Shown here: positions 2,829-61,600 of the stretch, piece by piece
Layout of the letters: the number at the start of each line of letters is the position of its first letter
Numbering within the stretch: position 1 is the first letter of the stretch
DNA from: Alphaproteobacteria bacterium
GTDB lineage: Bacteria; Pseudomonadota; Alphaproteobacteria; UBA11222
DNA length: 64,000 bases
Assembly (NCBI GenBank): GCA_023252275.1
Contig: JAHHGO010000001.1
Span: forward strand, 3,708 to 67,707
Direction: 5' to 3'
Notes under the pieces: generated by a model
Databases searched by the model: none
What the model was told of the DNA's origin: nothing
Seen by the model: the letters and a program-made list of their open reading frames with translations, nothing else
Translations under genes and position numbers: made by a program

Positions 2829-5378
2829 TCAAAACAGTTTCAGCAAGCGGTCAATATAGTTCAGCTCTTCGGCCGGGCGGCGGCGCTGGCTGGCGCGCAG
2901 TTCAAGCTCGCGGCGGATTTGCAGGGCCCGCTCAATGCCGAACTGTTCAGGCACGACGGTAGCTGTGCCTGCGTCACTGGTCATTGGCCTGCCTAGCGGG
3001 TCTTTATCATTGCGGGGCGCGCCACTTTCTCCGCTTTCACCATTTTCCGCGCGCGCCTTTGCGTCTTCTTCACGCAGTGATTTCGCCAGCGCGCCCGCAC
3101 CCGCGCGCAATTGATCCATTGCCTGACGCTGCTGGTCCAGAGCTTCTGCGGATTCGCCCTGACGCAAGGCTTCGGCCGCGTCCCGCATGGCGCGTTCCGC
3201 GCGCCGAAGCGAATTTGGCGTTTCTCCTGGCGATTGCTGTTCAAGACTGTTGTTAAGCCCGCCCAATGCGCCGCCTAATTCATCCTGCTCGGCAGCCAGC
3301 CCGCCATTGTCTCCCTTGCCCTTTTCGCCACCGTTTTTATCGCCGCCGCTATTATCCTGTTTGCGCCTTGTATAGGTTTCGTCCTGCAATTTCTGCTGCT
3401 GGCGCATCATGCTGGACAGATCATTCAGGGCGTTTCCGTAAAGAAGCTGTTTCGCGCTCTGCTGGCCGCCCGCCTGACCTGGACGCATATTTTCCAGGAT
3501 ATTCTGCAATTTAGAAAGCATTTGCTGGGCCGCATCGCGCGCACCCGACCGGCTGAGCTTTTCAATATTATCCAGCAACTCGTCCAGATCGGATTTTTCG
3601 ATCATTTCGGAATTATCCTGGCCGTCCTGCGTCTGGGGCTGCATGCCTTCTTCCAGCGCCTGTTCCGCCATTTCCTGCACATAGCGCTCCAGGGCCTCGC
3701 GCAGCGCCTGGGTTAATTTGGAAATTTCCGTGTCGCTTGCGCCGTTTTGCAGGGCCTGCATCAGCGCCTTTTGCAGGGCGCGGATTTCATTGCCCGCGAT
3801 CGACAGATCGCCATCCTCGATGCGCAACGCCAGTTGCCATAATAAATCCACTGTCTGTGTCCGCGCATCTTCATTGCCATGAAGATGCGCGATACGGTGA
3901 CGCGCCACGCGCATCGGCAGATAAATTCCAGTTTCGGGCGTAAATTTCTGCGGAAACAGGCTCAACGCATCCAGCGCCCGGATGGTGTCCGCATCGCGTT
4001 TCGGCGTCAGCGCCACATTGCGGCGCTGCTCGATAATGGCGCGCGCCAGCGGATTGGAAAAGACGCGCTGCGGCAAAACCAGCGAAACCGGATTGCTGTA
4101 TCCGCTCTGGCCCGCCGCATCCACCGCCCGCAGGCGAAGCTGCACCCTCCGCCCCGCCCAGGGATGCCCGCCAAGATCCGCATAGGCGGTCTGTCCGCCC
4201 TTCACCGAGGATTGCGGGGCCGGGAATTCAATTTTCAGGGGTGTTTCCTTCGGCGTATTTTCCGGCATCTCAGGCATAATATCGACGCCCGCCGCGACAA
4301 CGCCATAATCGTCCGTGACGCCATATTTGAAACGCAAACTGAACTGGCGCGTGACGGTAATATCCTCCAGCAGACTGATCACGGGCGGCTGATCGGGAAT
4401 GACATTGATCCGCCATTCACGATTTTCCGAACCCGGCTCGCGCAACTGTACAGACTGACTATGCTCAAGCCGGACCGATACATGGCTATTGGCGCTATCG
4501 ATACGCGTCATGGGCAGGCGCTGTTTTTCGCCATTGTCCGGCACAAGGCGCAGCTCGGCTTCGCGGCCGCTGAACAGGCGCATGGAAAGCTCGCTTCCCG
4601 CCGGGACCGAAATGGTGCGCACCGCCGTTGCGTCTGTTGACGGCTCGGCTTTCACATCCTGGGAAATTTTGTCGAATGCCGCGCCTGCCAGCATGACGGG
4701 GGCCGCCCTTGTATAGCCGGGCGGCGTAATCCAGGCCTCGAGCCGCGATGGCGGCAGCGCCGGGCCAAGGCGCGCGGGGCTGAAGCCCGCCTCGATGCGC
4801 GGCCACCATTGCGATCCGGCGGAAATTGAACCGGCGATCAGCAAAATGCCCGCCATCTGGCGCAGGCCATGACGGTCAAGCCGGATGGCCCCCGGATGCG
4901 GCGGAACAAATTTCAGCCGCGGCAAATTCCGCAGCAGACGCCGCTGATGCGCACGCCAAAGGCTTCGCGCCTCCTCGACGCCATCGCCCAGCGCCTGCTG
5001 GTCTTCCAGTGCGCGCAACGGATGATGACGCAAGCCGTTATCCTGTTCGATGCGGGCCAGAATGTGCCGCCGATCCGGCAGCCGGAATCTGTTGCGCGCC
5101 TGAATGAGCGTTACGGCGCTGAACGAAAGCAGCGCCAGAAGCAAAAACCAGTGCACAATTGACGGCGTATGACGCCAGACATCAAACAGCGATAGCGACA
5201 GAAAAAATCCCCAGGCGCAGATGGGACGCCACAGATTTTGCCAGAGCATTTCCCACAGCAGCGCCAGCCTTGTCACCGCGACGCGCCGCCGCAAACCGGG
5301 AATGGCGCCCGGTTGCTCGCCGCGCTGGCGCAGTGGCGCAGCGGGGATGTATGGTGGCGTGTGCGGGGCCTCGCTCAA
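2829..5378 (-). CDS. Large alphaproteobacterial membrane-anchored low-complexity protein (TIGR02302/DUF4175-like)
   Basis: 849 aa, N-terminal TM helices, central Q/A/G-rich low-complexity region, conserved C-terminal part. Matches the family typically found next to cpdR/lysA in alphaproteobacteria; assignment from memory. Confidence 0.5.
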   Translation of the reverse strand: MSEAPHTPPYIPAAPLRQRGEQPGAIPGLRRRVAVTRLALLWEMLWQNLWRPICAWGFFLSLSLFDVWRHTPSIVHWFLLLALLSFSAVTLIQARNRFRLPDRRHILARIEQDNGLRHHPLRALEDQQALGDGVEEARSLWRAHQRRLLRNLPRLKFVPPHPGAIRLDRHGLRQMAGILLIAGSISAGSQWWPRIEAGFSPARLGPALPPSRLEAWITPPGYTRAAPVMLAGAAFDKISQDVKAEPSTDATAVRTISVPAGSELSMRLFSGREAELRLVPDNGEKQRLPMTRIDSANSHVSVRLEHSQSVQLREPGSENREWRINVIPDQPPVISLLEDITVTRQFSLRFKYGVTDDYGVVAAGVDIMPEMPENTPKETPLKIEFPAPQSSVKGGQTAYADLGGHPWAGRRVQLRLRAVDAAGQSGYSNPVSLVLPQRVFSNPLARAIIEQRRNVALTPKRDADTIRALDALSLFPQKFTPETGIYLPMRVARHRIAHLHGNEDARTQTVDLLWQLALRIEDGDLSIAGNEIRALQKALMQALQNGASDTEISKLTQALREALERYVQEMAEQALEEGMQPQTQDGQDNSEMIEKSDLDELLDNIEKLSRSGARDAAQQMLSKLQNILENMRPGQAGGQQSAKQLLYGNALNDLSSMMRQQQKLQDETYTRRKQDNSGGDKNGGEKGKGDNGGLAAEQDELGGALGGLNNSLEQQSPGETPNSLRRAERAMRDAAEALRQGESAEALDQQRQAMDQLRAGAGALAKSLREEDAKARAENGESGESGAPRNDKDPLGRPMTSDAGTATVVPEQFGIERALQIRRELELRASQRRRPAEELNYIDRLLKLF

Positions 5379-25689: not shown

Positions 25690-25980
25690 ATGCAAGACGA
25701 ACAATTATCTGATGAATGTAAATCCTGTTATGTCTATGTGCTGGGCACTTGCGCCGTCAATGGCATAAGGACATATGTCGGCTGGACAACCAATCTGGAA
25801 CGCCGCCTGGCCGAACATAATTCTGGCAAGGGCGCGCGCTCCACGCGCGGGCGGGAATGGCGGCTGCTTTATTCCGAGCGTGCGGAAGATCGCAGCCTGG
25901 CGCAATCCAGGGAATATGCCCTGAAAAAGGACCGCGGCTTTCGCAAAATGCTGGCGCGGCATATTCCGGGTACTGATTGA
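25690..25980 (+). CDS. GIY-YIG nuclease domain protein (stand-alone, UPF0213-like)
   Basis: CYVYVLG...YVGWTTNLERRLAEHN; 96 aa. Confidence 0.75.
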   Translation: MQDEQLSDECKSCYVYVLGTCAVNGIRTYVGWTTNLERRLAEHNSGKGARSTRGREWRLLYSERAEDRSLAQSREYALKKDRGFRKMLARHIPGTD

Positions 25981-25988
25981 GAGCGGTT

Positions 25989-26498
25989 CTAGCCGATTCT
26001 CAAGCGGCTGCCGGGTCCGCACATTCTCAGCACAGTCAGCAGGTCTTCGCGGCGCAGCGCCACGCAGCCCGCGGTGGGCGCAAAGCCGGGCGTGGCCACA
26101 TGCATGAAAATGGCGCTGCCCATGCCGTTGATAACCGGCGCGTCATTGTAACCCAGCACAACAACAATATCATACAGCGGATCGGCGCGGCGCAGGCGTT
26201 CGGCGCTGGCGTTAAGCGGTAATTGCACCTGACAATTATAGTCCGCATGGCCTGGCGCATCACACCAGCCATCGCGCGGGCCAATCGGATTTAACTCAAG
26301 CGCGGTTTCGGGCGCCGGAAGGCGATCGGCGCGATACAGCACCCGGCGCAATTCATATTCCCCTATGGGCGTTGCGCCGTCGCCTTCACGCTTGTCTTTG
26401 CGGATGCCGGTGCGCCCGATGGCGCAGGGAAAGCTGAGCCGGCCTGCGCGCAACAGGCCACGGGACGGGCGGATATGCTGGATTAGGCGGAGTTTCAA
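25989..26498 (-). CDS. L,D-transpeptidase family protein
   Basis: 169 aa; YkuD-like catalytic region with HV...TAGCVAL. Confidence 0.6.
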   Translation of the reverse strand: MKLRLIQHIRPSRGLLRAGRLSFPCAIGRTGIRKDKREGDGATPIGEYELRRVLYRADRLPAPETALELNPIGPRDGWCDAPGHADYNCQVQLPLNASAERLRRADPLYDIVVVLGYNDAPVINGMGSAIFMHVATPGFAPTAGCVALRREDLLTVLRMCGPGSRLRIG

Positions 26499-26504
26499 TC
26501 CCGC

Positions 26505-27101
26505 CTACGCGTCAAAATCACCCGCTAGCGCGGCGCGCGCCTGCGGTGTCAGCTGCGCCAGATGGGCATAGTTTTCATGTTCAAATCCCAGCATCACTTT
26601 CTGCGCCGGATCCCGGAAGGCCTTGATCTGCGCTGGCGTAAACGGGAAATGCAGAAAATGCACGGAGGATGTCTTGCCATCTTCACGGGTGCGGTCCTCG
26701 CCCGGCTCCGGCACGGCCATGATGCGATCATCGCCCACCTGCAGGAATGTAGCGCGTTCGATGAAAGACAGGGTTCGCAAAATCCGTTCGCGGCGGACCG
26801 GGTCTTCGATTTCGAACATCAGGGTGCAGACAAGTTCATTGCCCTGCGGGATCAGCGGATTATAGGCGGCCAGTTCATCTTCGATCTGTGCCTCGCCGCC
26901 TTTTTCGATATACAGCATTTCCTGAATCTGCTGCAGCATGGTGTCGAAATTTTCGAAATAGAATGTCGCCACCGGCCCCACTTCAACCCGGCGGTTCTGC
27001 TTCAGCGCCACCATTTCCGCGCGGCGCTGTTTGCGTATGGCGGCATAGTCCGCTGTGGACAGCAGATCTGACCGGCTGATGGCGCGGCGTTTTGCGGTCA
27101 T
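26505..27101 (-). CDS. DUF3501 family protein
   Basis: 198 aa; conserved partner of rubrerythrin and the CCG-domain Fe-S protein. Confidence 0.6.
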   Translation of the reverse strand: MTAKRRAISRSDLLSTADYAAIRKQRRAEMVALKQNRRVEVGPVATFYFENFDTMLQQIQEMLYIEKGGEAQIEDELAAYNPLIPQGNELVCTLMFEIEDPVRRERILRTLSFIERATFLQVGDDRIMAVPEPGEDRTREDGKTSSVHFLHFPFTPAQIKAFRDPAQKVMLGFEHENYAHLAQLTPQARAALAGDFDA

Positions 27102-28483
27102 GGCGTCAGCCCATAGGCGCGGGCCAGCAATTCAACCGGATGATGCGCCTGTTCGGGAATTTTCGCCTCGCCATCGATGTTTTCCATGCCCTGCAAAATA
27201 TGCTTGGCCGCCAGCGGGCATTCCGAAACAACAAACGCATTGGCCTGCTGGCGCGCGGCGGCGGCCACCGGCTTGCCGACTTTCATGGCGGAGGGGCGGG
27301 TTTTTTTCATGACGCCGAAGGTGCCGCCATGGCCCGAGCAGCGCTCGATCACATCCAGCTTGATCTCTGGAATGAGGCGCAGCAATTCCGCGCCCTTGGC
27401 GCCCATATTCTGGGCGCGCGCATGACAGGCCAGATGCAGGCTGGCGCCGCCTGGCAGGGGCTGCATACCCGGGGCGATGCCCTGTTTTTTGGCGATGTCG
27501 ACAATATATTCGTCAATGTCGAAGGTGGATTTGGACAGGCGCGCAATGGCTTTATCTTCGGGCAGGATCAGCGGCCATTCGAATTTCAGCATCAATCCGC
27601 AACTGGCGGTGAGCGTGATAATGTCATAGCCCTTGTCTGTCCATTTGATCAGTTCGCGCGAAACCTTGCCGGCCTGCTGCGCGACACGGGGCAGATTGCC
27701 CTGTTCCAGAAATGGCATGCCGCAACAGGCGGGATAGACCACTTCGGTTTCGACGCCGTTCTTCGCCAGCACGGCGCGCGCCGCCATGCCGATGCCGGGA
27801 TTATTGTAATTCACAAAACAGGTGGCATAGAGCACCGCCTTGCGGCCAAAAGCGGGCGCGTCTTTGTTGACGGCAGGCGGCGCGGATTTGGCGTTCATCA
27901 CAAAAGTTTTGGAATTGAATTTCGGCAGTTCCGCCTTCGCGTCAATCCCGGTGATTTTTTCCACGATGGGACGGGTCAGTTTGTTGTCCGTGGACGATCC
28001 CCAATTGACCAGCGGCGCCAGCGGGCGCGCCAGGGTTCCGTTGCGGTCCATTTCGGCCAATTGTCCGGGCACAAATTCCGCATTGCCCTGTTTATATTGC
28101 GCGGCGCGATAGCGCAGCATCAGATGCGGAAAATCCAGATTAAATTCATGCGGCGGCACATAGGGGCATTTGGTCATGAAGCACATGTCGCACAGCGTGC
28201 AGGCTTCGACGACAGGCGCAAAGTCCTTACTGTCCACGCTGTCCAGTTCGCCTGTGGGGCTTTCATCCACCAGATCGAACAGGCGCGGAAACGAATCGCA
28301 CAAATTAAAGCAGCGCCGGCAGCCATGACAAATATCGAAAACCCGGTGCAGTTCCGCATCGATCTTTTCCATGTCGTAAAAATCCGGATTGTTCCAGTCC
28401 AGCGCATGACGAATTGGCGCTTCGGTGCTGCCTTCTTTCATGGGATATCCTTTTGCTCGCATGTCTGCGCTCCCTCTCCCCAA
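27098..28483 (-). CDS. (Fe-S)-binding protein with two 4Fe-4S motifs and CCG cysteine-rich domains (heterodisulfide reductase subunit D / GlpC-like)
   Basis: CHGCRRCFNLCDSFP and CTLCDMCFMTKCPYVPP ferredoxin motifs; C-terminal CCG repeats (CCGMPF, SCG). Confidence 0.8.
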   Translation of the reverse strand: MGRGSADMRAKGYPMKEGSTEAPIRHALDWNNPDFYDMEKIDAELHRVFDICHGCRRCFNLCDSFPRLFDLVDESPTGELDSVDSKDFAPVVEACTLCDMCFMTKCPYVPPHEFNLDFPHLMLRYRAAQYKQGNAEFVPGQLAEMDRNGTLARPLAPLVNWGSSTDNKLTRPIVEKITGIDAKAELPKFNSKTFVMNAKSAPPAVNKDAPAFGRKAVLYATCFVNYNNPGIGMAARAVLAKNGVETEVVYPACCGMPFLEQGNLPRVAQQAGKVSRELIKWTDKGYDIITLTASCGLMLKFEWPLILPEDKAIARLSKSTFDIDEYIVDIAKKQGIAPGMQPLPGGASLHLACHARAQNMGAKGAELLRLIPEIKLDVIERCSGHGGTFGVMKKTRPSAMKVGKPVAAAARQQANAFVVSECPLAAKHILQGMENIDGEAKIPEQAHHPVELLARAYGLTP

Positions 28484-28497
28484 TCAATGGGGAGAGG
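28473..28497. repeat. Intercistronic hairpin ccctctcccc-aatcaat-ggggagagg between rubrerythrin and the Fe-S gene
   Basis: Perfect 9-bp stem, 7-nt loop, CT/GA-armed; same arm composition as the hairpins at 42832 and 42875. Confidence 0.5.
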
Positions 28498-28523
28498 CCG
28501 CCAGCAGTGGCGTTAATCGCGGC

Positions 28524-28946
28524 TTAGCTGTCGAGTGTGGTCAGCGCCTTGGTGAAACGTCCGGCATGGGACTTTTCGGCTTTGGCAAGAGTTTCGAACC
28601 AGTCGGCGATTTCGGCAAAGCCTTCTTCGCGGGCGGTGCGGGCCATGCCGGGATACATGTCGGTATATTCATGGGTTTCACCGGCGACGGACGCCTTCAG
28701 ATTATTGCTGGTGGAGCCGATGGGCAGGCCGGTGGCCGGATCGCCAACATTTTCCATGAATTCCAGATGGCCGTGCGCATGGCCGGTTTCGCCTTCGGCG
28801 GTGGAGCGGAATACCGCCGCCACGTCATTATAGCCTTCCACGTCGGCCTTTTGCGCGAAGTACAGATAGCGGCGGTTGGCCTGGCTTTCGCCGGCAAAAG
28901 CCGCTTTCAGATTGTCGAGGGTTTTGCTTTTTCCCAGTGTTGCCAT
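28524..28946 (-). CDS. Rubrerythrin family protein
   Basis: [27 protein letters not shown]...; di-iron ligands (E..H, E..E..H); AAGGAGA SD before ATG at 28946. Confidence 0.8.
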
Positions 28947-29065
28947 TGTCGTTCTCCTTGGCTTGGATGATGCCCATTTGGGCTGATAGATTTGAAATGA
29001 AGCTGTTTGGGACCGTTCCCGTTTACCATACAGACTATATAGCGCGCAGAATACCGGCGTCAACA

Positions 29066-29098
29066 GTTTAGAATGGTTTTAATTTGTGAAATTATCGT
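29066..29098. promoter_or_regulatory. AT-rich operator-like sequence in the regulator-rubrerythrin intergenic region
   Basis: gtttagaatggttttaatttgtgaaattatcg contains a TTTAGAA half-site resembling the Irr iron-control-element consensus TTTAGAA-N3-TTCTAAA. Confidence 0.3.
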
Positions 29099-29117
29099 GA
29101 CGGGCCAGCCCGCCAGC

Positions 29118-29546
29118 CTATTCCTGTCCGGACAGCCGGATGATCACATCGACGCGGGAAATCCTGGCCCCGTCAGGCGCTTTGGGAAGGCCGCGAATGT
29201 CCACATTGGCGCCATCAATATCAATTAACTCGCCGCTATCTTCAAAAAAGAAATGATGGTGGCCGGTGATATTCGTGTCGAAATAGGTGCAGGCTGAATT
29301 CACCACCACTTCGCGCAGCAATCCTGCCGTGGTGAACTGATGCAGGGTGTTGTACACCGTCGCCAGCGACACTTTCACGCCCGCCGCCTGCGCTTGCTCA
29401 AACAGAATTTCAGCCGTGACATGATGATCGCCTGGCTCAAACAGCAGCTTGGCCAAGGCCAGCCGCTGCTTTGTCGGGCGCAATTTCGCGTCTCGCAGCC
29501 GCGCCAGCGCGGCCAATCTGTGCGGGGGGGTTGATTGGGTCTCCAT
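29118..29546 (-). CDS. Fur-family transcriptional regulator lacking structural Cys pairs (Irr/PerR-like)
   Basis: 142 aa, winged-helix N-terminus, GHHHFFFE motif, no CxxC pairs; immediately upstream of the rubrerythrin operon. Confidence 0.7.
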   Translation of the reverse strand: METQSTPPHRLAALARLRDAKLRPTKQRLALAKLLFEPGDHHVTAEILFEQAQAAGVKVSLATVYNTLHQFTTAGLLREVVVNSACTYFDTNITGHHHFFFEDSGELIDIDGANVDIRGLPKAPDGARISRVDVIIRLSGQE

Positions 29547-29605
29547 TAAGTTTGAATATCAGCATCGGCGGGGCATTTGTCCAGTCTATTATGGTTTTAG
29601 TCTAA

Positions 29606-31324
29606 GTGGACGAGGATAGGATGACACAGCAGCCTGCAACGCGTTTCTCCCCGGCATGGCATCTGTTTGTGCCAAAGCTGTACACCGTGTTGCGCGAGGG
29701 GTACCGGGCGCCGCACTTCCGGGATGATGCGATTGCCGGCCTGACGGTGGCGATTGTTGCTCTGCCATTGGCCATGGCGCTGGCCATTGCCTCTGGCACG
29801 ACCCCGGATAAAGGGCTGGTTACGGCCATTGTCGCCGGATTTCTGATATCCGCATTGGGCGGCAGCCGGTTTCAGATCGGCGGCCCGACCGGCGCCTTTG
29901 TAGTGGTGGTGTTCAATGTCATTCACGCGCATGGCTATGACGGGCTGGTGCTGGCCACCCTGATGGCGGGGGCGATGCTGCTGATTGCCGGCATTGCGCG
30001 GTTTGGCGACTGGATCAAATATATTCCCGATCCGGTGGTGACCGGCTTCACCTCGGGCATCGCGGTGATCATATTTTCAAGTCAGATCGGCGATCTGTTT
30101 GGACTGTCTCTGGCCAGTGTGCCCGCGGACTTTATCGCCAAATGGGCGGCGTTCTGGAATGCGCGCGGCAGCGTCAGCCCCTGGGCGGCGGGTGTTGCTT
30201 TCGGCGCGCTGGGTGTGATTATTGTGCTGCGGCGATTGGCCCCCAAACAGCCCGGATTTCTGATTGCGGTAGTGGCGGCTTCGCTGTTCGTCTACCTCCT
30301 GAATGCGCCTGTTGACACAATAGGCTCGCGTTTTGGGGGTATTCCCAGCCATTTGCCGATGCCGCACTGGCCGGAAATCACGGTTTCGCGCCTGCAGGAA
30401 TTATTGCCCAGCGCCTTTACCATTGCATTTCTGGCGGGCGTAGAAAGCCTTTTGTCGGCGATGGTGGCGGATGGCATGACCGGCAGGCGGCATCGTTCCA
30501 ACTGCGAACTGGTGGCGCAGGGCACGGCCAATATCGCCTCGGCGCTGTTTGGCGGTATGCCCGCCACGGGGGCCATTGCGCGCACCGCCACCAATATCCG
30601 CTCCGGTGCAAGATCGCCCATTGCCGGGATGCTGCATGCGCTGTTTGTGTTGCTGTTTATCCTGCTGCTGGCGCCGCTGGCGTCCTTCATTCCGATGGCG
30701 TCGCTGGCCGCTATTCTGGTCATTGTCGCCTGGAATATGAGCGAGTTGGAGAAATTCCGCGCCCTGATGCGCGCGCCGCGGGGGGATCAATTCGTATTGC
30801 TGTTGACCTTCGGGCTTACGGTGATGGTTGATCTTACCGTGGCCATCGAGGTCGGCGTTGTGCTGGCGGCGATTCTGTTCATGCACCGCATGTCACAGGT
30901 GGATACCCATGAACAGGGCGCCGGGATGTGGGAGCATGATGAGGATGATTTCACCCGCGCGCCGAATGGCGGCTATACCCAGCGTGACGCTCTTCCTGTG
31001 GGTGTTGAGGTGTTTCGACTGCGCGGCCCCCTGTTTTTTGGCAATGCATCGCGGCTGGGGGACATTCTCGATGCGCTTATCGGCCCCTGGCCAGGCACAT
31101 TCATCCTGAGAATGCGTGATGTGCCGATGGTGGATGCAACGGGAGTGGGCGCCTTGCGGGAATTTTTGCACCGCTGCCAGATGCACGGCACAAAGGTTAT
31201 TGTCAGCGGTATTCAACCGCAGCCGCGCCAGGTGCTGACCCAGATGGGTTTTGGGACCGATTCAACCGCACTACAGTTAGCCGAAGATTTTCAGGCTGCG
31301 CTGGCACTGGTGCGGGCCGCGTAA
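29606..31324 (+). CDS. SulP-family anion transporter with C-terminal STAS domain
   Basis: ~11 TM, C-terminal STAS domain; alternative ATG at 29621. Confidence 0.85.
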   Translation: MDEDRMTQQPATRFSPAWHLFVPKLYTVLREGYRAPHFRDDAIAGLTVAIVALPLAMALAIASGTTPDKGLVTAIVAGFLISALGGSRFQIGGPTGAFVVVVFNVIHAHGYDGLVLATLMAGAMLLIAGIARFGDWIKYIPDPVVTGFTSGIAVIIFSSQIGDLFGLSLASVPADFIAKWAAFWNARGSVSPWAAGVAFGALGVIIVLRRLAPKQPGFLIAVVAASLFVYLLNAPVDTIGSRFGGIPSHLPMPHWPEITVSRLQELLPSAFTIAFLAGVESLLSAMVADGMTGRRHRSNCELVAQGTANIASALFGGMPATGAIARTATNIRSGARSPIAGMLHALFVLLFILLLAPLASFIPMASLAAILVIVAWNMSELEKFRALMRAPRGDQFVLLLTFGLTVMVDLTVAIEVGVVLAAILFMHRMSQVDTHEQGAGMWEHDEDDFTRAPNGGYTQRDALPVGVEVFRLRGPLFFGNASRLGDILDALIGPWPGTFILRMRDVPMVDATGVGALREFLHRCQMHGTKVIVSGIQPQPRQVLTQMGFGTDSTALQLAEDFQAALALVRAA

Positions 31325-31407
31325 TATTTCCTAAACCGCTTTCGCGGATTGTTACGATATGTTACCTGAGATCACGAAAAATGGATTCCGCCCCGAAGGG
31401 ATGATCG

Positions 31408-31929
31408 ATGCCGAATAGACCGGCCAGCCTTAGTTATGAGGATTTGCTGCGCTGCGGCCATGGGCAGATGTTCGGCCCCGGCAACGCGCAATTGCCGCTG
31501 CCGCCGATGCTGATGTTTGACCGGATTACCCGGATTTCCGACACAGGCGGCGCGCATGGCAAGGGCGAAGTGGTGGCCGAACTGGATATAAGGCCGGATT
31601 TGTGGTTTTTCGCCTGTCATTTTGAGGGCGACCCGGTGATGCCGGGCTGTCTGGGGCTGGATGCACTGTGGCAGTTAACTGGATTTTTCCTGGGCTGGCT
31701 GGGGGGGCAAGGCCGGGGCCGCGCTTTGGGTGTTGGTGAAGTAAAGTTGATGGATATGGTTGAACCCAGGCACAAACTGCTAACTTACCGGCTGGATCTG
31801 AAGCGGGTGATCAATCGCCGGCTGGTCATGGGTGTTGCCGATGGCGTCATCAGCGTGGATGGTGCCGAAACCAGCCGCGCCACAGACCTGAAGGTTGGCC
31901 TGTTCAGGTCTGGCGAAACGCCGCAATGA
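31408..31929 (+). CDS. fabA: 3-hydroxydecanoyl-ACP dehydratase/isomerase
   Basis: 173 aa hotdog fold; active-site context [19 protein letters not shown]. Confidence 0.9.
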
Positions 31930-31945
31930 GCGGAAGGAGAGTGCT

Positions 31946-33160
31946 ATGAGACGTGTCGTGGTTACGGGCATGGGCATCGTATCCAGTATCGGCAATAATA
32001 CGCAACAGGTGCTGGCCAGCCTGCGCGAGGGCCGTTCCGGCGTGGAATTTGTCGATACCTATCGCGACATGGGATTTCGCAGCCATATTGCGGGTACGCT
32101 GAAGATCGATCTGGAAGAAGCGGTGGACCGCAAGCTGAAACGCTTTATGGGCGATGCGGCGGCCTATGCCTGGATTTCCATGGATCAGGCGATCCGCGAT
32201 GCGGGGCTGACGCCGGCGGAAATCTCGCATGAGCGCACCGGCATCATTGTCGGCTCCGGCGGCCCGTCGACGCATAATATTCTGCTGGCCTGCGATACGG
32301 CGCGCGAAAAGGGGCCGAAAAAGGTCGGCCCTTTCATGGTGCCGCGTAATATGTCCAGCAGCACCTCGGCGAACCTCGCCACGGCGTTTCACATCAAGGG
32401 GCTGAACTACACCATTTCATCCGCCTGTTCGACCAGCGCGCATTGCATCGGCGCAGCCGCCGAACAAATTCAATATGGCAAACAGGACATCATGTTCGCA
32501 GGCGGCGGCGAGGAACTGGACTGGTCGTTGACCGTGCTGTTCGACGCCATGGGCGCGCTATCCAGTAAATATAATGATACGCCCGCGAAAGCCTCGCGCG
32601 CCTATGACGCCAACCGCGACGGCTTTGTGATATCGGGCGGCGGCGGCTGTCTGGTGCTTGAGGAGCTGGAGCACGCCAAGGCGCGCGGCGCGAAAATTTA
32701 TGGCGAACTGACCGGCTATGGCGCCACTTCGGACGGGGTGGATATGGTGCAGCCATCGGGCGAAGGCGCGGTGCGTTGCATGCGCATGGCGATTGCGGGG
32801 CTGAAGGGGCCGGTTGATTATATCAATGCCCATGGCACCTCGACGCCGATTGGCGACACCAAGGAACTGGAAGCCATCCGCATCGTGTTCGGCGATAAAA
32901 TCCCGCCGATCAATTCCACCAAAAGCCTGACCGGCCACAGCCAGGGCGCGACCGGGGTGCATGAGGCGATCTATTCGCTGCTGATGCTGAATAACCAGTT
33001 TGTCTGCGTGTCGGCTAATATCGAAACGCTTGATCCCGAGGCGGAAGGCATGCCTATTGTCCGTGAACGGATCGATAATGCGGGGCTGAACACCGTGCTT
33101 TCGAACAGCTTTGGTTTTGGCGGCACCAATGCGTGCCTGGCCTTCTCCCGGCTTGTTTAA
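31946..33160 (+). CDS. fabB: 3-oxoacyl-ACP synthase I
   Basis: [18 protein letters not shown], catalytic Cys in SACSTSAHC, His-His dyad, C-terminal GFGGTNA. Confidence 0.9.
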
Positions 33161-42831: not shown

Positions 42832-42856
42832 TCCCTCCCCTTTACAAGGGGAGGGA
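42832..42856. repeat. Hairpin tccctcccc-tttacaa-ggggaggga
   Basis: Perfect 9-bp CT/GA stem downstream of hsp20. Confidence 0.5.
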
Positions 42857-42874: not shown

Positions 42875-42895
42875 CCTCCCCCGGAAAGGGGGAGG
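42875..42895. repeat. Hairpin cctccccc-ggaaa-gggggagg
   Basis: 8-bp CT/GA stem; second member in tandem with 42832. Confidence 0.5.
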
Positions 42896-61200: not shown

Positions 61201-61600
61201 CGTCAGGCAGGGTTTCCAGATTCAGAATGGGGGCAATCAGCCGGAAATTCGCCACCTGGATTTTCCCCGAAAGCAGCGCCGCCATGGCAAGCTGCGCATC
61301 CAGCCGCTCCAGGCTGAGCATTACCGGTTCCGAGGCGTCGGCGTGATTGGCGAGTGTGGCGTTTTCCAGCGACAAAGCGGGGCGGGGCAGCATGCTGAAA
61401 CTGATCGGGCCGTTAATTCGGACCTGCCCGCCCGCAAAGGTGCTCGCCTGGCTTTCGATCTGGTCTTTGAAACGGTTCCAGTCAATGAAACCCGGCAGCA
61501 GCAGCGCGGCAATAAGCAGCAGCAGCACGGACGCCGCCAGGCTATAGGCGATTTTCCGGCCGCGGGACGGGGGGCGTTTGAATTTGCGCACTGTCCGCAT
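58208..61600 (-). CDS. AsmA-family protein (bridge-like lipid transfer protein superfamily)
   Basis: 1130 aa, N-terminal TM anchor, long beta-rich periplasmic region, Pro/Ala-rich C-terminus. Confidence 0.7.
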   Translation of the reverse strand: MRTVRKFKRPPSRGRKIAYSLAASVLLLLIAALLLPGFIDWNRFKDQIESQASTFAGGQVRINGPISFSMLPRPALSLENATLANHADASEPVMLSLERLDAQLAMAALLSGKIQVANFRLIAPILNLETLPDGVNNWDILAAGATPPAEIKFDHVLIERGQMRYRNRVSGAALSASEMDLQLSGESLFGPFKLAGAMRIQDVPLRLEAKAGKFSGGQPAALILKSMLPENTRLDFNGTVTSHGDMAGTLVSQGADLNLLMTHMVKLGVPALAGMQAGFLPYAYQLEGVLSFTPDRFDFDKVKFSLNENALTASLKIDMTAAPVFEAVVNASSLDLDKLRKATASDAPSLTLPAGFEIRPDLKGTVRITGNAVKLNNGTVRDIAIAAKVSDGALTLENFSAYLPGSTALKISGELTHSGGAPNFKGNLDVRAEYFRALLGWLGMQTPDIPDRSLGRAELTAQIDITPELAQLHKITAAIDASKLTGDLALALRGRPALGIELKIDQLNADNYFPEAVAAPVADPAANIADPAAPKWPIIRELIMQHDSNFDLSVNELIYHGLPITKLQAEGSLVSGTVAFNKFTIADIAGSAFSLSGILSNFSAAMQGEINLRLASNDLGGLARTLGTPLPIPGAQLGKTRIEAKFLLADNGVEAAINSQFGETSLEIAGSFNGLAPGIIAPAGEAAASRMRIALNSPSLHGIAAQAGYKISPAEAGDDAGISLTAELASANNEISLSALNGVIGAIPIQGQASWNAAGPKPVFRAEAHAGEILMDNLFQTAPSTDAARSSQNRQLPWSGAPLDLTFMDRFEADIILDAARISAAGYDIVKPSVTLELRAGRASLKQLTGQLFGGEAVLSASLSNVPDMPEFTAGWNLKDADIQAVSLAVAGSPAMTGQLNFSGSVKGAGASSFALVSSLEGKAQLTANKGFIQGINLPAFSAQLAKLERAADFQKLAAPALQDGATPYTRISAPFTIAQGVAQSDNPEISIATATGGLEASIDLPRYWLTAEANLTFNDHMSAPPLGIAFIGPLNAPERSLRTSRIENHFTQALMSKSLQRIISDRDAAPAPIPVTDAPPVAEQTAPPSEPPVSAQQPSAPAPSVAPQESTARKMLNSIIDGLIKEPSR

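Follow-up and report, generated by a model that had tools for sequence, protein, structure and literature searches.

An aerobic-type rubrerythrin system in a 64-kb alphaproteobacterial window (the whole stretch of 64,000 nucleotides that was analysed) lies directly behind the gene of an Irr-type regulator, and its promoter abuts a complete Irr box (ICE) whose position and conservation over orthologous promoters are far beyond chance. The best reading of this arrangement, to which we give a probability of about 0.6, is that the locus encodes a cytoplasmic peroxide reductase, costly in iron, that Irr represses at low haem or iron.

Gene order and gene starts

The minus-strand order is irr, rubrerythrin (rbr), a GlpC/HdrD-like Fe-S/CCG protein (RFO), DUF3501 and a YkuD-type L,D-transpeptidase. 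Gene positions and Pfam/NCBIfam profile scores bear out the five identities and the order given in a preliminary description of this DNA, whose title includes the YkuD gene although its span, ending at 26505, covers only the other genes. The features of the locus are as follows.

29555..29583, minus strand: promoter-like site upstream of irr, TGGACA-17-GATATT (consensus scan, 9/12 matches)
29118..29546, minus strand: irr, Fur-family haem/iron response regulator Irr, 142 aa (PF01475, FUR, 67.8 bits, and NCBIfam Irr models)
29067..29083, no strand assigned: predicted ICE (Irr box), 17-bp palindrome, 2 mismatches to TTTRGAAYNRTTCYAAA
29034..29063, minus strand: rbr promoter, sigma-70-type, -35 TTGACG (29063-29058), 18 nt, -10 TATAGT (29039-29034), 10/12
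28947..29027, minus strand: predicted rbr 5' UTR (alignment with nearest relatives; start inferred from the -10 position)
28524..28946, minus strand: rbr, aerobic-type rubrerythrin, 140 aa (PF02915, Rubrerythrin, 106 bits)
28473..28497, minus strand: perfect hairpin, CCTCTCCCCA-UUGAU-UGGGGAGAGG, 10-bp stem, 5-nt loop, no T tract
27098..28441, minus strand: RFO, GlpC/HdrD-like Fe-S/CCG protein, 447 aa (PF02754, CCG, 44.3 bits, and weak Fer4)
26505..27101, minus strand: DUF3501 protein, 198 aa (PF12007, 208.8 bits), start overlapping the RFO stop
25989..26498, minus strand: YkuD-type L,D-transpeptidase-fold protein, 169 aa, TTG start (PF03734, YkuD, 60.4 bits)

Two gene starts had to be revised. 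The TTG at 29063 formerly assigned to rbr gave way to the ATG at 28946 (MATLGK, RBS AAGGAG), because solved homologues align from residue 1, and the irr-rbr intergenic region thus measures 171 nt (29117-28947). The former start of the CCG protein was replaced by the ATG at 28441, on which independent gene calls from other contigs and 120 homologues agree (444-467 aa, most of them 444-450, with coverage of 99-100%). As a consequence, the rbr-RFO spacer is 82 nt long and not 40, although the perfect hairpin first reported in it stands (28497-28473). The 4-nt overlap between the RFO stop and the DUF3501 start (ATGA at 27101-27098) and the 6-nt gap between DUF3501 and YkuD (26504-26499) needed no correction.

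The rubrerythrin system

This triad was described by Cardenas, Quatrini & Holmes (2016, PMC5114695) as the "aerobic-type rubrerythrin system", RBR-RFO-DUF3501. The preliminary view of it as recurrent and biochemically unsolved was right, and the electron route through the CCG protein suggested there is a rediscovery of a published hypothesis. In PMC5114695, the Fe-S/CCG protein is proposed as an electron conduit that replaces the lost rubredoxin domain, the three genes are found together in 185 genomes, Nitrosomonas has RFO-DUF3501 fusions, and Thermoproteales have DUF3501 without RFO. Gray et al. 2020 (PMC7050145) place the system also in protist mitochondria, with eukaryotic RFO and DUF3501 only in species encoding an aerobic-type rubrerythrin. 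Nothing essential differs in the window: the three components lie co-linearly on a single strand, a rubredoxin domain is missing from the rubrerythrin, RFO is a COG0247/GlpC-like Fe-S protein with CCG, DUF3501 is PF12007, and the electron-conduit role proposed for RFO is identical. The additions are irr and a putatively ICE-controlled promoter ahead, and YkuD behind.

The window rubrerythrin also lacks Cys. It aligns with Burkholderia pseudomallei Rbr (BpRbr; 4DI0/9ONM) over residues 1-137 (E = 1e-69; about 80% identity by hand count on the printed alignment) and with sulerythrin (E = 7e-50), and its candidate di-iron ligands are E20, E53, H56, E90, E93, E124 and H127. Together with ferriperoxin (Fpx) of Hydrogenobacter thermophilus, sulerythrin of Sulfolobus tokodaii and BpRbr share with it the subfamily, the length of about 140 aa and the E/ExxH ligand pattern, and within the subfamily it is only for these three that enzymology (peroxidase) or a solved structure (domain-swapped dimer) exists. 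Fpx is an FNR/NADPH-dependent peroxidase for H2O2 and organic hydroperoxides, essential to aerobic growth and active in vitro with FNR in the absence of RFO or DUF3501 (PMC3317640); peroxidase and catalase activities are reported for sulerythrin (bioRxiv 10.1101/2025.06.01.657255). These comparators differ from the window in that Fpx was assayed with FNR/NADPH and comes from an organism whose RFO gene is unlinked, and in that Irr is absent from the organisms of all three. We consider it quite improbable that the module serves primarily some other form of iron or oxygen handling, such as O2 reduction, detoxification of iron by a ferroxidase-type activity, or the repair or metallation of iron centres, in which DUF3501 would act as metallochaperone.

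RFO combines two ferredoxin-type 4Fe-4S motifs with two CCG-type domains, and its cysteines 38/41/44/48, 81/84/87/92, 208/239/240/281 and 339/368/408 show no variation across 30 homologues. HdrB/HdrD, GlpC, LutA and mycobacterial EtfD have the same domain plan, a pair of CxxCxxCxxxC-type motifs and then two CCG-type domains, and among solved folds the closest are those of the electron-transfer proteins LutA (TM 0.79 on target), EtfD (over 410 aligned columns) and HdrB. RFO differs from EtfD, a transmembrane protein, by having no transmembrane part, and its CCG motifs (the last two cysteine groups, the second being CSG) are reduced relative to HdrB, which has two five-cysteine motifs. Identity with GlpC was rejected, the score of 183.7 bits lying below the cut-off of 278 and glpA/glpB neighbours being absent. 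Since Fpx works without RFO and DUF3501, and Thermoproteales have DUF3501 without RFO, RFO may not be an obligatory donor.

Irr and its box

Judged by its profile scores, the regulator is Irr. It passes both Irr equivalog cut-offs (NCBIfam IrrA 206 bits, cut-off 150; Irr 183.9, cut-off 170), and the next best models are PerR (70.6 and 64.7 bits; cut-offs 200-250) and Fur (45.6). Identification as Zur, Mur or Fur was rejected, given these passes and PerR and Fur scores far under their cut-offs. The HHH motif (96-98) and the absence of CxxC pairs had been recognised correctly, but the protein is not cysteine-less, as it has a single Cys, C86. The Bradyrhizobium-type Cys-Pro haem regulatory motif is absent from it. 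Fur-superfamily regulators also adjoin rbr in the PerR/Fur-regulator and rubrerythrin operons of anaerobes, as in Nitratidesulfovibrio vulgaris (bioRxiv 10.1101/2025.06.01.657255). The window differs from these in both partners, its regulator having no CxxC zinc site and PerR scores far under the cut-offs, and its rubrerythrin belonging to another subfamily, devoid of a rubredoxin domain; to derive both regulator-rbr pairs from a common ancestor would be speculative.

The TTTAGAA half-site in which a hint of an ICE had been seen is correct in its letters (TTCTAAA at 29067-29073, plus-strand TTTAGAA) but is not a half-site. The motif search of the irr-rbr region extended it to a full palindrome, conserved in relatives, whose minus-strand reading, ATTAAAACCATTCTAAA, has 2 mismatches to the consensus compared, TTTRGAAYNRTTCYAAA. 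No site in the 64 kb other than this ICE, at 29067-29083, comes within 2 mismatches. The ICE lies 3 nt upstream of the -35 of the rbr promoter, itself the top promoter match within 25800-29800, and roughly at -39 to -55 relative to the predicted rbr transcription start. The predicted 5' UTR holds a clade-conserved GGTAAACGGG, a small stem and the RBS AAGGAG. At the promoter-like site upstream of irr, the only ICE-like sequence immediately ahead of the site is a degenerate one with 5 mismatches.

Counted over the window alone, the ICE match does not stand out genome-wide: the 64 kb contain 2 sites with 3 mismatches or fewer, where 1.33 are expected, as would fit a coincidental adjacency of irr and rbr, an ICE-like sequence arisen by chance and an operon outside Irr regulation. 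Comparison of loci makes this very improbable. Among 68 alphaproteobacterial loci spanning Hyphomicrobiales and Rhodospirillales, which share ancestry and are not independent events, 54 have irr as the immediate upstream neighbour of rbr in the same orientation, and 62 carry an ICE with 3 mismatches or fewer ahead of rbr, as compared with 1.3% of 3400 dinucleotide shuffles (with 2 or fewer, 47 loci as compared with 0.06%). The combination of irr, ICE and rbr is thus that of most related genomes sampled. Moreover, the intergenic alignment is best conserved at the ICE, whose spacing to the -35 is fixed while flanking sequence and length diverge; 33 of the 46 loci with a good promoter have a gap of exactly 3 nt, and the layout ICE-3 nt-TTGAC-N16-18-TATAnT is common to 33 related loci. 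Coincidence is strongly disfavoured by these observations.

Irr control of rubrerythrin was predicted in 2006 by Rodionov et al. for Pelagibacter, Rhodospirillum and Magnetospirillum, where rubrerythrin would be the sole or main target of minimal Irr regulons (PMC1698941). The available text of the papers on the aerobic-type rubrerythrin system (PMC5114695, PMC7050145) does not discuss Irr regulation. The window resembles the Irr/ICE regulons used as comparators (Bradyrhizobium blr7895/mbfA and bfr; Rhizobium; Rhodobacter mbfA and ccpA) in its regulator and its operator, and Rbr is an iron-containing oxidative-stress protein like the products of mbfA, ccpA and katG. Repression by Irr at low iron is experimental for bfr and mbfA/blr7895, and predicted for katG and ccpA (PMC1698941, PMC3413700, PMC7762939). 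However, the characterised 'rubrerythrin-like' Irr target, blr7895/MbfA, exports iron across the membrane and bears its erythrin domain at the N-terminus, whereas the window Rbr is soluble, and identity with MbfA was rejected (18.5 bits against a cut-off of 450). The Rhodobacter sphaeroides mbfA start site lies inside the Irr box (PMC3413700), whereas the window ICE abuts the -35.

Extent of the transcription unit

The Irr-controlled unit might be limited to rbr, with the stem-loop acting as a terminator and RFO-DUF3501(-YkuD) transcribed separately or by weak read-through, in which case the five genes are not one operon. Stems of at least 8 bp follow rbr in 59 of 72 related loci, at least 13 of them with the T-rich tails typical of intrinsic terminators, rbr and RFO are separated by spacers of considerable and varying length (37-493 nt), and in Hydrogenobacter and Thermocrinis the RFO gene is at another genomic location (PMC5114695). 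We nevertheless hold this to be possible rather than probable: a promoter search in the window's 82-nt spacer gave no convincing candidate, a T tract is missing from the window hairpin, and rbr, RFO and DUF3501 keep their order on a single strand in every sufficiently long locus examined. The spacer folds at -35.1 kcal/mol (z = -3.2), and its hairpin looks like a lineage-specific REP-type palindrome, the CTCCCC...GGGGAG type being seen again at 42835 and 42876. With this look and no T tract, it may have no dedicated role. In the preferred reading of one Irr-repressed operon, a stem-loop after rbr would probably ensure a high ratio of Rbr to RFO/DUF3501, by partial termination or transcript stabilisation.

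The YkuD protein, with H133 and C145 within FMHVATPGFAPTAGC, is encoded after DUF3501 only in the window's closest relatives (loci L004-L009 and L012, and the identical contigs L001-L003). Rightly described as appended, its gene is a clade-specific add-on and would be a recent 3'-end passenger.

Function and sign of control

Within the complex that we propose, Rbr would be the catalytic di-iron subunit, reducing H2O2, and probably also organic hydroperoxides, to water. The rubredoxin domain that feeds electrons in classical rubrerythrins is missing here, and RFO would be the electron-entry subunit, with its two ferredoxin-type [4Fe-4S] clusters and HdrB/LutA/EtfD-like CCG domains; candidate physiological donors are quinol, thiol, or ferredoxin/FNR. 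DUF3501, a putatively cofactor-less beta-sandwich/helix protein translationally coupled to RFO, may serve as a docking or assembly subunit.

Irr might instead activate the operon, apo-Irr recruiting RNA polymerase from upstream of the -35 when haem is scarce. A non-haem rubrerythrin system would then substitute for haem catalases and peroxidases under iron or haem limitation. The ICE indeed lies upstream of the -35, off the core promoter, in most loci; whether control is positive or negative is held to depend on its position, and Irr is often a direct activator (PMC1698941, PMC7762939), upstream positions having been linked to possible positive control (PMC1698941). In Pelagibacter, rbr mRNA is 1.57-fold higher under iron limitation (PMC2864753), a weak effect that runs opposite to simple Irr repression. 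Yet the rubrerythrin system is itself very iron-rich, and the promoter is already near consensus, with 10-11/12 matches in many related loci, so that an activator should be needless. The 3-nt gap also centres the site near -47, away from where activators usually bind on bacterial promoters. In Methylocystis loci, which have no adjacent irr, the ICE is retained and overlaps the -10, where it can only repress, a placement incompatible with activation of an orthologous operon. Activation is therefore unlikely in our view.

Under the repression that we favour, scarce haem or iron would bring apo-Irr onto the ICE at 29067-29083. Because this site abuts the -35 of a near-consensus promoter, bound Irr would most likely occlude RNA polymerase and shut off an iron-costly system, with 2 Fe per Rbr and Fe-S clusters on the 15 invariant cysteines of RFO. 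Haem sufficiency, joined by oxidants for some Irr proteins, would release Irr, and the operon would be on when the Fenton risk is highest.

Gene content and boundaries

Five co-directional genes occupy the minus strand from 29546 to 25989, as established by ORF listing and direct reading, with identities assigned by Pfam and NCBIfam. The five-gene array of the preliminary description is thereby confirmed, with minor corrections.

Features of the locus and palindromes related to its hairpin (window positions)
29546-29118, minus strand, Fur-family regulator (Irr), 142 aa
start ATG 28946, minus strand, rubrerythrin (rbr), beginning MATLGK with AAGGAG ahead, 140 aa
28497-28473, minus strand, perfect hairpin, 10-bp stem and 5-nt loop
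start ATG 28441, minus strand, Fe-S protein with CCG domain (RFO), 447 aa
27101-26505, minus strand, DUF3501 protein, 198 aa
26498-25989, minus strand, YkuD-domain protein, TTG start, 169 aa
42835-42853, 42876-42894 and 28476-28494, CTCCCC-loop-GGGGAG palindromes

The corrections concern mainly two start codons. The start first assigned to rubrerythrin was wrong, and ATG 28946 is correct because the alignment with solved homologues begins at residue 1; this leaves 171 nt between irr and rbr. The start first assigned to the CCG protein was also wrong: ATG 28441 is used in the gene calls on three independent identical contigs, and 120 homologues measure 444-467 aa (most 444-450) at a coverage of 99-100%. 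The rbr-RFO spacer, given as 40 nt, is therefore 82 nt, although the perfect hairpin described in it is indeed present. The 4-nt overlap between the RFO and DUF3501 genes (ATGA) and the 6-nt gap between DUF3501 and YkuD were borne out. A 474-aa ORF on the plus strand (27092-28516) was taken to be a shadow of the RFO gene, as full-length homologues support the minus-strand gene.

The last gene of the array encodes a YkuD protein (PF03734, 60.4 bits) with the catalytic H133 and C145. Its N-terminus, MKLRLIQHIRPSRGLLRAGRLSF, has by eye no obvious hydrophobic signal. Such an N-terminus would be unusual for a peptidoglycan L,D-transpeptidase, which needs export to the periplasm, by a signal peptide or lipobox, to act on peptidoglycan. 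The gene is probably co-transcribed with DUF3501, given the 6-nt gap. Yet, among the fetched loci it follows DUF3501 only in the nearest relatives of the window, so that the L,D-transpeptidase earlier described as appended to the operon is a clade-specific neighbour, and comparison of related loci gave no evidence tying it to the rubrerythrin system. Further downstream, genes for a GIY-YIG protein, a 126-aa protein and an M48 peptidase are common to the contigs identical to the window (L001-L003) and to the well-covered close relatives L004, L006 and L007. The GIY-YIG gene (25690-25980, plus strand) converges on YkuD (25989-26498, minus strand), with 8 nt between the stop codons.

The regulator is Irr by its sequence signature

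The regulator has the winged-helix and dimerisation fold of the Fur family (PF01475 at residues 21-116, 67.8 bits for a cut-off of 23.1). Both Irr equivalog models of NCBIfam match it above cut-off (IrrA, 206 vs 150; Irr, 183.9 vs 170), and it remains far under the cut-offs of PerRB (70.6 vs 250), PerRA (64.7 vs 200) and Fur (45.6 vs 146). The sequence GHHHFFF contains H96-H97-H98, matching the HxH motif that is the haem site of Irr (PMC7762939). The protein had been called cysteine-less; it does lack CxxC pairs, but it has one cysteine, C86. By model scores and residue pattern, we conclude that the regulator is Irr. The scores and the absent CxxC pairs rule out PerR, Fur, Zur and Mur, and the regulatory reading of the preliminary description, to which a Zur or Mur affiliation would run counter, stands. 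A search of the PDB with the regulator found no Irr structure; the best matches were Fur and PerR (E ~1e-12).

The N-terminal Cys-Pro haem regulatory motif marks only the Bradyrhizobium-type subclass of Irr, which is controlled by degradation. Since the Irr of the window has no Cys-Pro anywhere, we would expect it to be of the Rhizobium type, in which haem lowers DNA binding.

Autoregulation of irr was rejected for the window, where the best ICE-like site (ICE, iron control element, the Irr operator) upstream of irr has five mismatches; this site is degenerate, with 5-7 mismatches, in the window and its nearest relatives. Elsewhere, an ICE-like palindrome with at most three mismatches precedes irr in 22 of 55 loci of relatives (including L013-L015, L024, L027, L028, L032, L042, L043, L048, L055 and L081), about 55-65 nt upstream, for example TTTATAATAATTATAA or ATTGTAATCATTACAAA. 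These sites point to autoregulation of irr in many relatives. Beyond irr, many alphaproteobacterial loci have a divergent fabA-fabB pair. In the clade of the window (window 29606-33160, plus strand; L004-L006) a SulP/DauA-like transporter gene (29606-31324) lies between fabA and irr.

A predicted Irr operator is conserved upstream of rbr

A TTTAGAA half-site reminiscent of the ICE had been noticed between the regulator and rbr. The link with the ICE holds, but the half-site is only the right half of a complete 17-bp palindrome. This predicted ICE lies at 29067-29083; it reads ATTAAAACCATTCTAAA on the minus strand (29083-29067), with two mismatches to the consensus TTTRGAAYNRTTCYAAA of Rodionov 2006 (PMC1698941). 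Another ICE-like site, with three mismatches (61466-61482), was rejected, as it falls within a 1130-aa ORF and does not exceed chance expectation.

We mapped the proteins of the window onto 80 loci that encode close relatives of DUF3501 and come from a one-genome-per-species collection. Almost all of them bear an alphaproteobacterial label; four bear labels of other taxa. Loci L039, L060, L072 and L035, from MAGs labelled Candidatus Kuenenia, Bordetella, Marinimicrobia or Candidatus Cybelea, have the typical alphaproteobacterial irr-rbr synteny and are probably mis-binned contigs. Sufficient upstream sequence was available for 68 loci (67 fetched and the window). In 54 of the 68, irr immediately precedes rbr in the same orientation, at a distance of 136-296 nt. 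Such loci occur in Hyphomicrobiales (Parvibaculaceae, Reyranellaceae and Rhodobiaceae), in Rhodospirillales (Dongiaceae, Aestuariispiraceae and Stellaceae) and in the PS1 clade, with Rhodobiaceae, Stellaceae and PS1 placed by record titles.

Within 250 nt upstream of rbr, 62/68 loci have an ICE match with three mismatches or fewer, and nine of these matches are perfect. The corresponding rates are 2% when 250-nt windows are drawn at random from these loci and 1.3% when the upstream regions themselves are shuffled with dinucleotides preserved (3,400 shuffles). With at most two mismatches the count is 47/68, against 0.06% of shuffles. The predicted ICE is conserved at orthologous promoters beyond chance, these percentages being read with the reservation that the 68 loci are related by descent and are therefore not independent trials. 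The 62 sites have the consensus wTTAGAAYNATTCTAAw. When the intergenic regions of the nearest relatives are aligned, only the block made up of the ICE and the -35 element is fully conserved, whereas the surrounding sequence and its length have diverged freely.

Some loci depart from the common arrangement. In the Baikal MAG locus L008 (1614-4451), irr and rbr are ~2.8 kb apart, vs ~170 nt in sister genomes, and the best ICE match within 250 nt of rbr is a poor one, with five mismatches; an insertion may have split the regulator from its target. Two tandem ICE-like sites precede rbr in L010 (~3800-4060) and L011 (~3790-4030): TTCAGAATAATTCTCAA, then ~40 nt downstream ATTAAAATTATTCTAAA, which adjoins the -35 element.

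Operator position and the sign of control

The ICE of the window ends 3 nt before TTGACG-18-TATAGT, the best sigma-70-type match of the region (10/12). A promoter match scoring 9/12 or better stands beside the ICE in 46 loci. The ICE and the -35 element are separated by exactly 3 nt in 33 of them and by 1-6 nt in 44, so that the ICE comes to lie at about -39 to -55. An ICE situated ahead of the promoter has been associated with positive control (PMC1698941), and the single expression measurement for an rbr linked to Irr, a 1.57-fold increase of its mRNA under iron limitation in Pelagibacter, points in the same direction (PMC2864753). That Irr activates the rbr operon nevertheless seems unlikely to us. 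In all loci of the Methylocystis type (those of Methylocystis, without adjacent irr, and two further loci of like layout) the right half of the ICE (TCTAAT) stands where the -10 element belongs, and there Irr could only repress. This arrangement favours repression, as do an rbr promoter of near-consensus strength and the amount of iron that the products require. A further argument comes from other stress and storage targets that contain iron: at low iron, Irr has been shown experimentally to repress bfr and mbfA/blr7895 and is predicted to repress katG and ccpA (PMC3413700; PMC1698941; PMC7762939). Repression of the rbr operon by Irr at low haem or iron, to which we give a probability of about 0.6, is thus our preferred reading. 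The operon would then be derepressed once haem becomes available and, with some Irr proteins, also by oxidants (PMC7762939).

The predicted 5' UTR of rbr has features of its own (28970-29027). The clade of the window keeps GGTAAACGGG, followed by a short stem in which some paired positions vary between relatives (GGGAAC..GTCCC, GGGC..GCCC, GGAC..GTCC), and the RBS is immediately preceded by another small stem, GCCCAAAnGGGC. An Rfam scan of 25800-29800 at E <= 1 returned only a sub-threshold BSnc120 match (19 bits vs 114), and hence no known RNA family in the rbr UTR or the rbr-RFO spacer.

Rubrerythrin, RFO and DUF3501

The rubrerythrin has the four-helix-bundle domain (PF02915, 106 bits) with the full di-iron ligand pattern E, ExxH, ExxE, ExxH (E20, E53/H56, E90/E93, E124/H127). 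With 140 aa and zero cysteines, it lacks the C-terminal rubredoxin domain. It matches the rubrerythrin of Burkholderia pseudomallei (BpRbr, PDB 4DI0/9ONM) at E = 1e-69, with ~80% identity counted on the printed alignment, and sulerythrin at E = 7e-50. The equivalents of E53 and E124 are Ala in the variant BpRbr chain 9ONR, which we assume to be the non-metal-binding mutant of a recent preprint (bioRxiv 10.1101/2025.06.01.657255).

The co-localisation of rbr with the RFO and DUF3501 genes in the window had been presented as an uncharacterised triad; it is in fact the aerobic-type rubrerythrin system already in the literature. Cardenas, Quatrini and Holmes defined in 2016 the aerobic-type rubrerythrin lineage without rubredoxin domain, described its co-localisation and co-occurrence with DUF3501 and a COG0247 Fe-S protein that they named RFO, found all three in 185 of 4,461 finished genomes, and proposed that RFO takes over the electron-transfer role of the missing rubredoxin domain (PMC5114695). 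The 2025 preprint on BpRbr restates this electron-partner hypothesis (bioRxiv 10.1101/2025.06.01.657255). Gray et al. (2020) reported the trio, of alphaproteobacterial origin and targeted to mitochondria, in several protist lineages (PMC7050145). Hydroperoxide reductase activity has been reported for relatives only, ferriperoxin (Fpx) and sulerythrin (PMC3317640; bioRxiv 10.1101/2025.06.01.657255). Ferriperoxin is an FNR/NADPH-dependent peroxidase acting on H2O2 and organic hydroperoxides, required for aerobic growth of Hydrogenobacter, the one organism tested (PMC3317640).

RFO carries two ferredoxin-type 4Fe-4S motifs (C38xxC41xxC44xxxC48 and C81xxC84xxC87xxxxC92) and two CCG-type segments, one with C208, C239-C240-G (239-241) and C281, the other with C339, C368-S-G (CSG 368-370) and C408; all 15 cysteines are invariant among 30 homologues. 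The CCG domain scores 44.3 bits (PF02754). Searching the PDB with the sequence gave no match at E <= 0.01. A fold search with the AlphaFold model (pLDDT 80) found LutA, mycobacterial EtfD and HdrB closest; these are all electron-transfer proteins with CCG domains. Identity with GlpC was ruled out (183.7 vs a cut-off of 278, and 121.4 vs 279.9; no glpA or glpB nearby). Many database homologues of RFO are named 'glycerol-3-phosphate dehydrogenase subunit C' (GlpC) although their scores fall short of the GlpC equivalog cut-off and their genes belong to rubrerythrin clusters; this naming is a systematic misannotation.

The DUF3501 protein matches the PF12007 model and the 3FJV fold. A profile search of 1.84 billion representatives found its homologues in 3,290 clusters at 50% identity. 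Cardenas et al. reported an RFO-DUF3501 fusion in Nitrosomonas (PMC5114695); the best 150 of the 3,290 clusters include no fusion of RFO or Rbr to DUF3501. Several of the longer homologues (P0269, P0353, P0326 and P0306) have 50-115 extra residues at the N-terminus, with an abundance of Ser, Arg and Leu. These extensions look like mitochondrial presequences, which fits the reported mitochondrion-targeted eukaryotic copies of the system (PMC7050145).

A stem-loop recurs after rbr

The 82-nt spacer between rbr and RFO folds at -35.1 kcal/mol (z = -3.2 vs shuffles). When the spacers were folded as RNA, nearly all loci showed a strong stem-loop shortly behind the stop codon of rbr, with unrelated sequences; in 59 of 72 spacers the stem runs for at least 8 bp without interruption, and at least 13 of these 59 hairpins have T-rich tails like those of intrinsic terminators. 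In the window, the stem is followed by GAGCGCAGA, without a T tract, so that it does not qualify as an intrinsic terminator. Palindromes of the CTCCCC...GGGGAG type occur three times in the window vs 0.07 expected, and hairpins of similar kind, CCCCTCCCC/GGGGAGGGG, fill the rbr-RFO spacers of the close relatives L004, L006 and L008. Given this recurrence and the missing T tract, the hairpin looks like a lineage-specific REP-type element, at a place where a stem-loop is generally kept.

The terminator-like tails raise the alternative that RFO and DUF3501 form a transcription unit separate from rbr. The most economical reading of the hairpins would be differential dosage within one operon, the stem-loop allowing abundant Rbr and less RFO and DUF3501, through partial termination or stabilisation of the 3' end.

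Implications

Our analysis supports the interpretation of the preliminary description, which largely rediscovers published proposals: the triad and the idea of RFO as electron conduit date from 2016 (PMC5114695), and the control of rubrerythrin by Irr from 2006 (PMC1698941). For the window itself this is annotation rather than a discovery of a new kind. What is new is the quantitative case for irr-rbr-RFO-DUF3501 as a conserved block in many alphaproteobacteria, with an ICE at a fixed position relative to the -35 element and a stem-loop after rbr.

The block might even be the ancestral core of the Irr regulon. Irr would have arisen early in alphaproteobacteria from a PerR-like regulator adjacent to rbr, keeping rbr as its target while its signal switched from metal-catalysed oxidation to haem. 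This scenario is tentative and we hold it to be rather doubtful, but it is compatible with the synteny across Hyphomicrobiales and Rhodospirillales, with minimal Irr regulons that consist of rbr or ccpR (PMC1698941), and with PerR models being the next-best matches after those of Irr. If true, the fixed geometry of ICE and -35 would be the original design of the Irr operator.

The aerobic-type rubrerythrin system is widespread and extends to the mitochondria of protists. A conserved predicted operator with fixed promoter geometry hard-wires the module to Irr in many alphaproteobacteria, and this link provides a concrete and inexpensive handle on the system, with haem or iron status as the expected switching condition. 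Cultured hosts include Parvibaculum, Dongia, Reyranella and Methylocystis. The same operon has an ICE abutting the -35 element in some species and an ICE over the -10 in others, which is a natural experiment on how the position of the ICE affects the sign of control. The electron donor of the system, what DUF3501 does and whether Irr represses or activates become directly testable at this locus.
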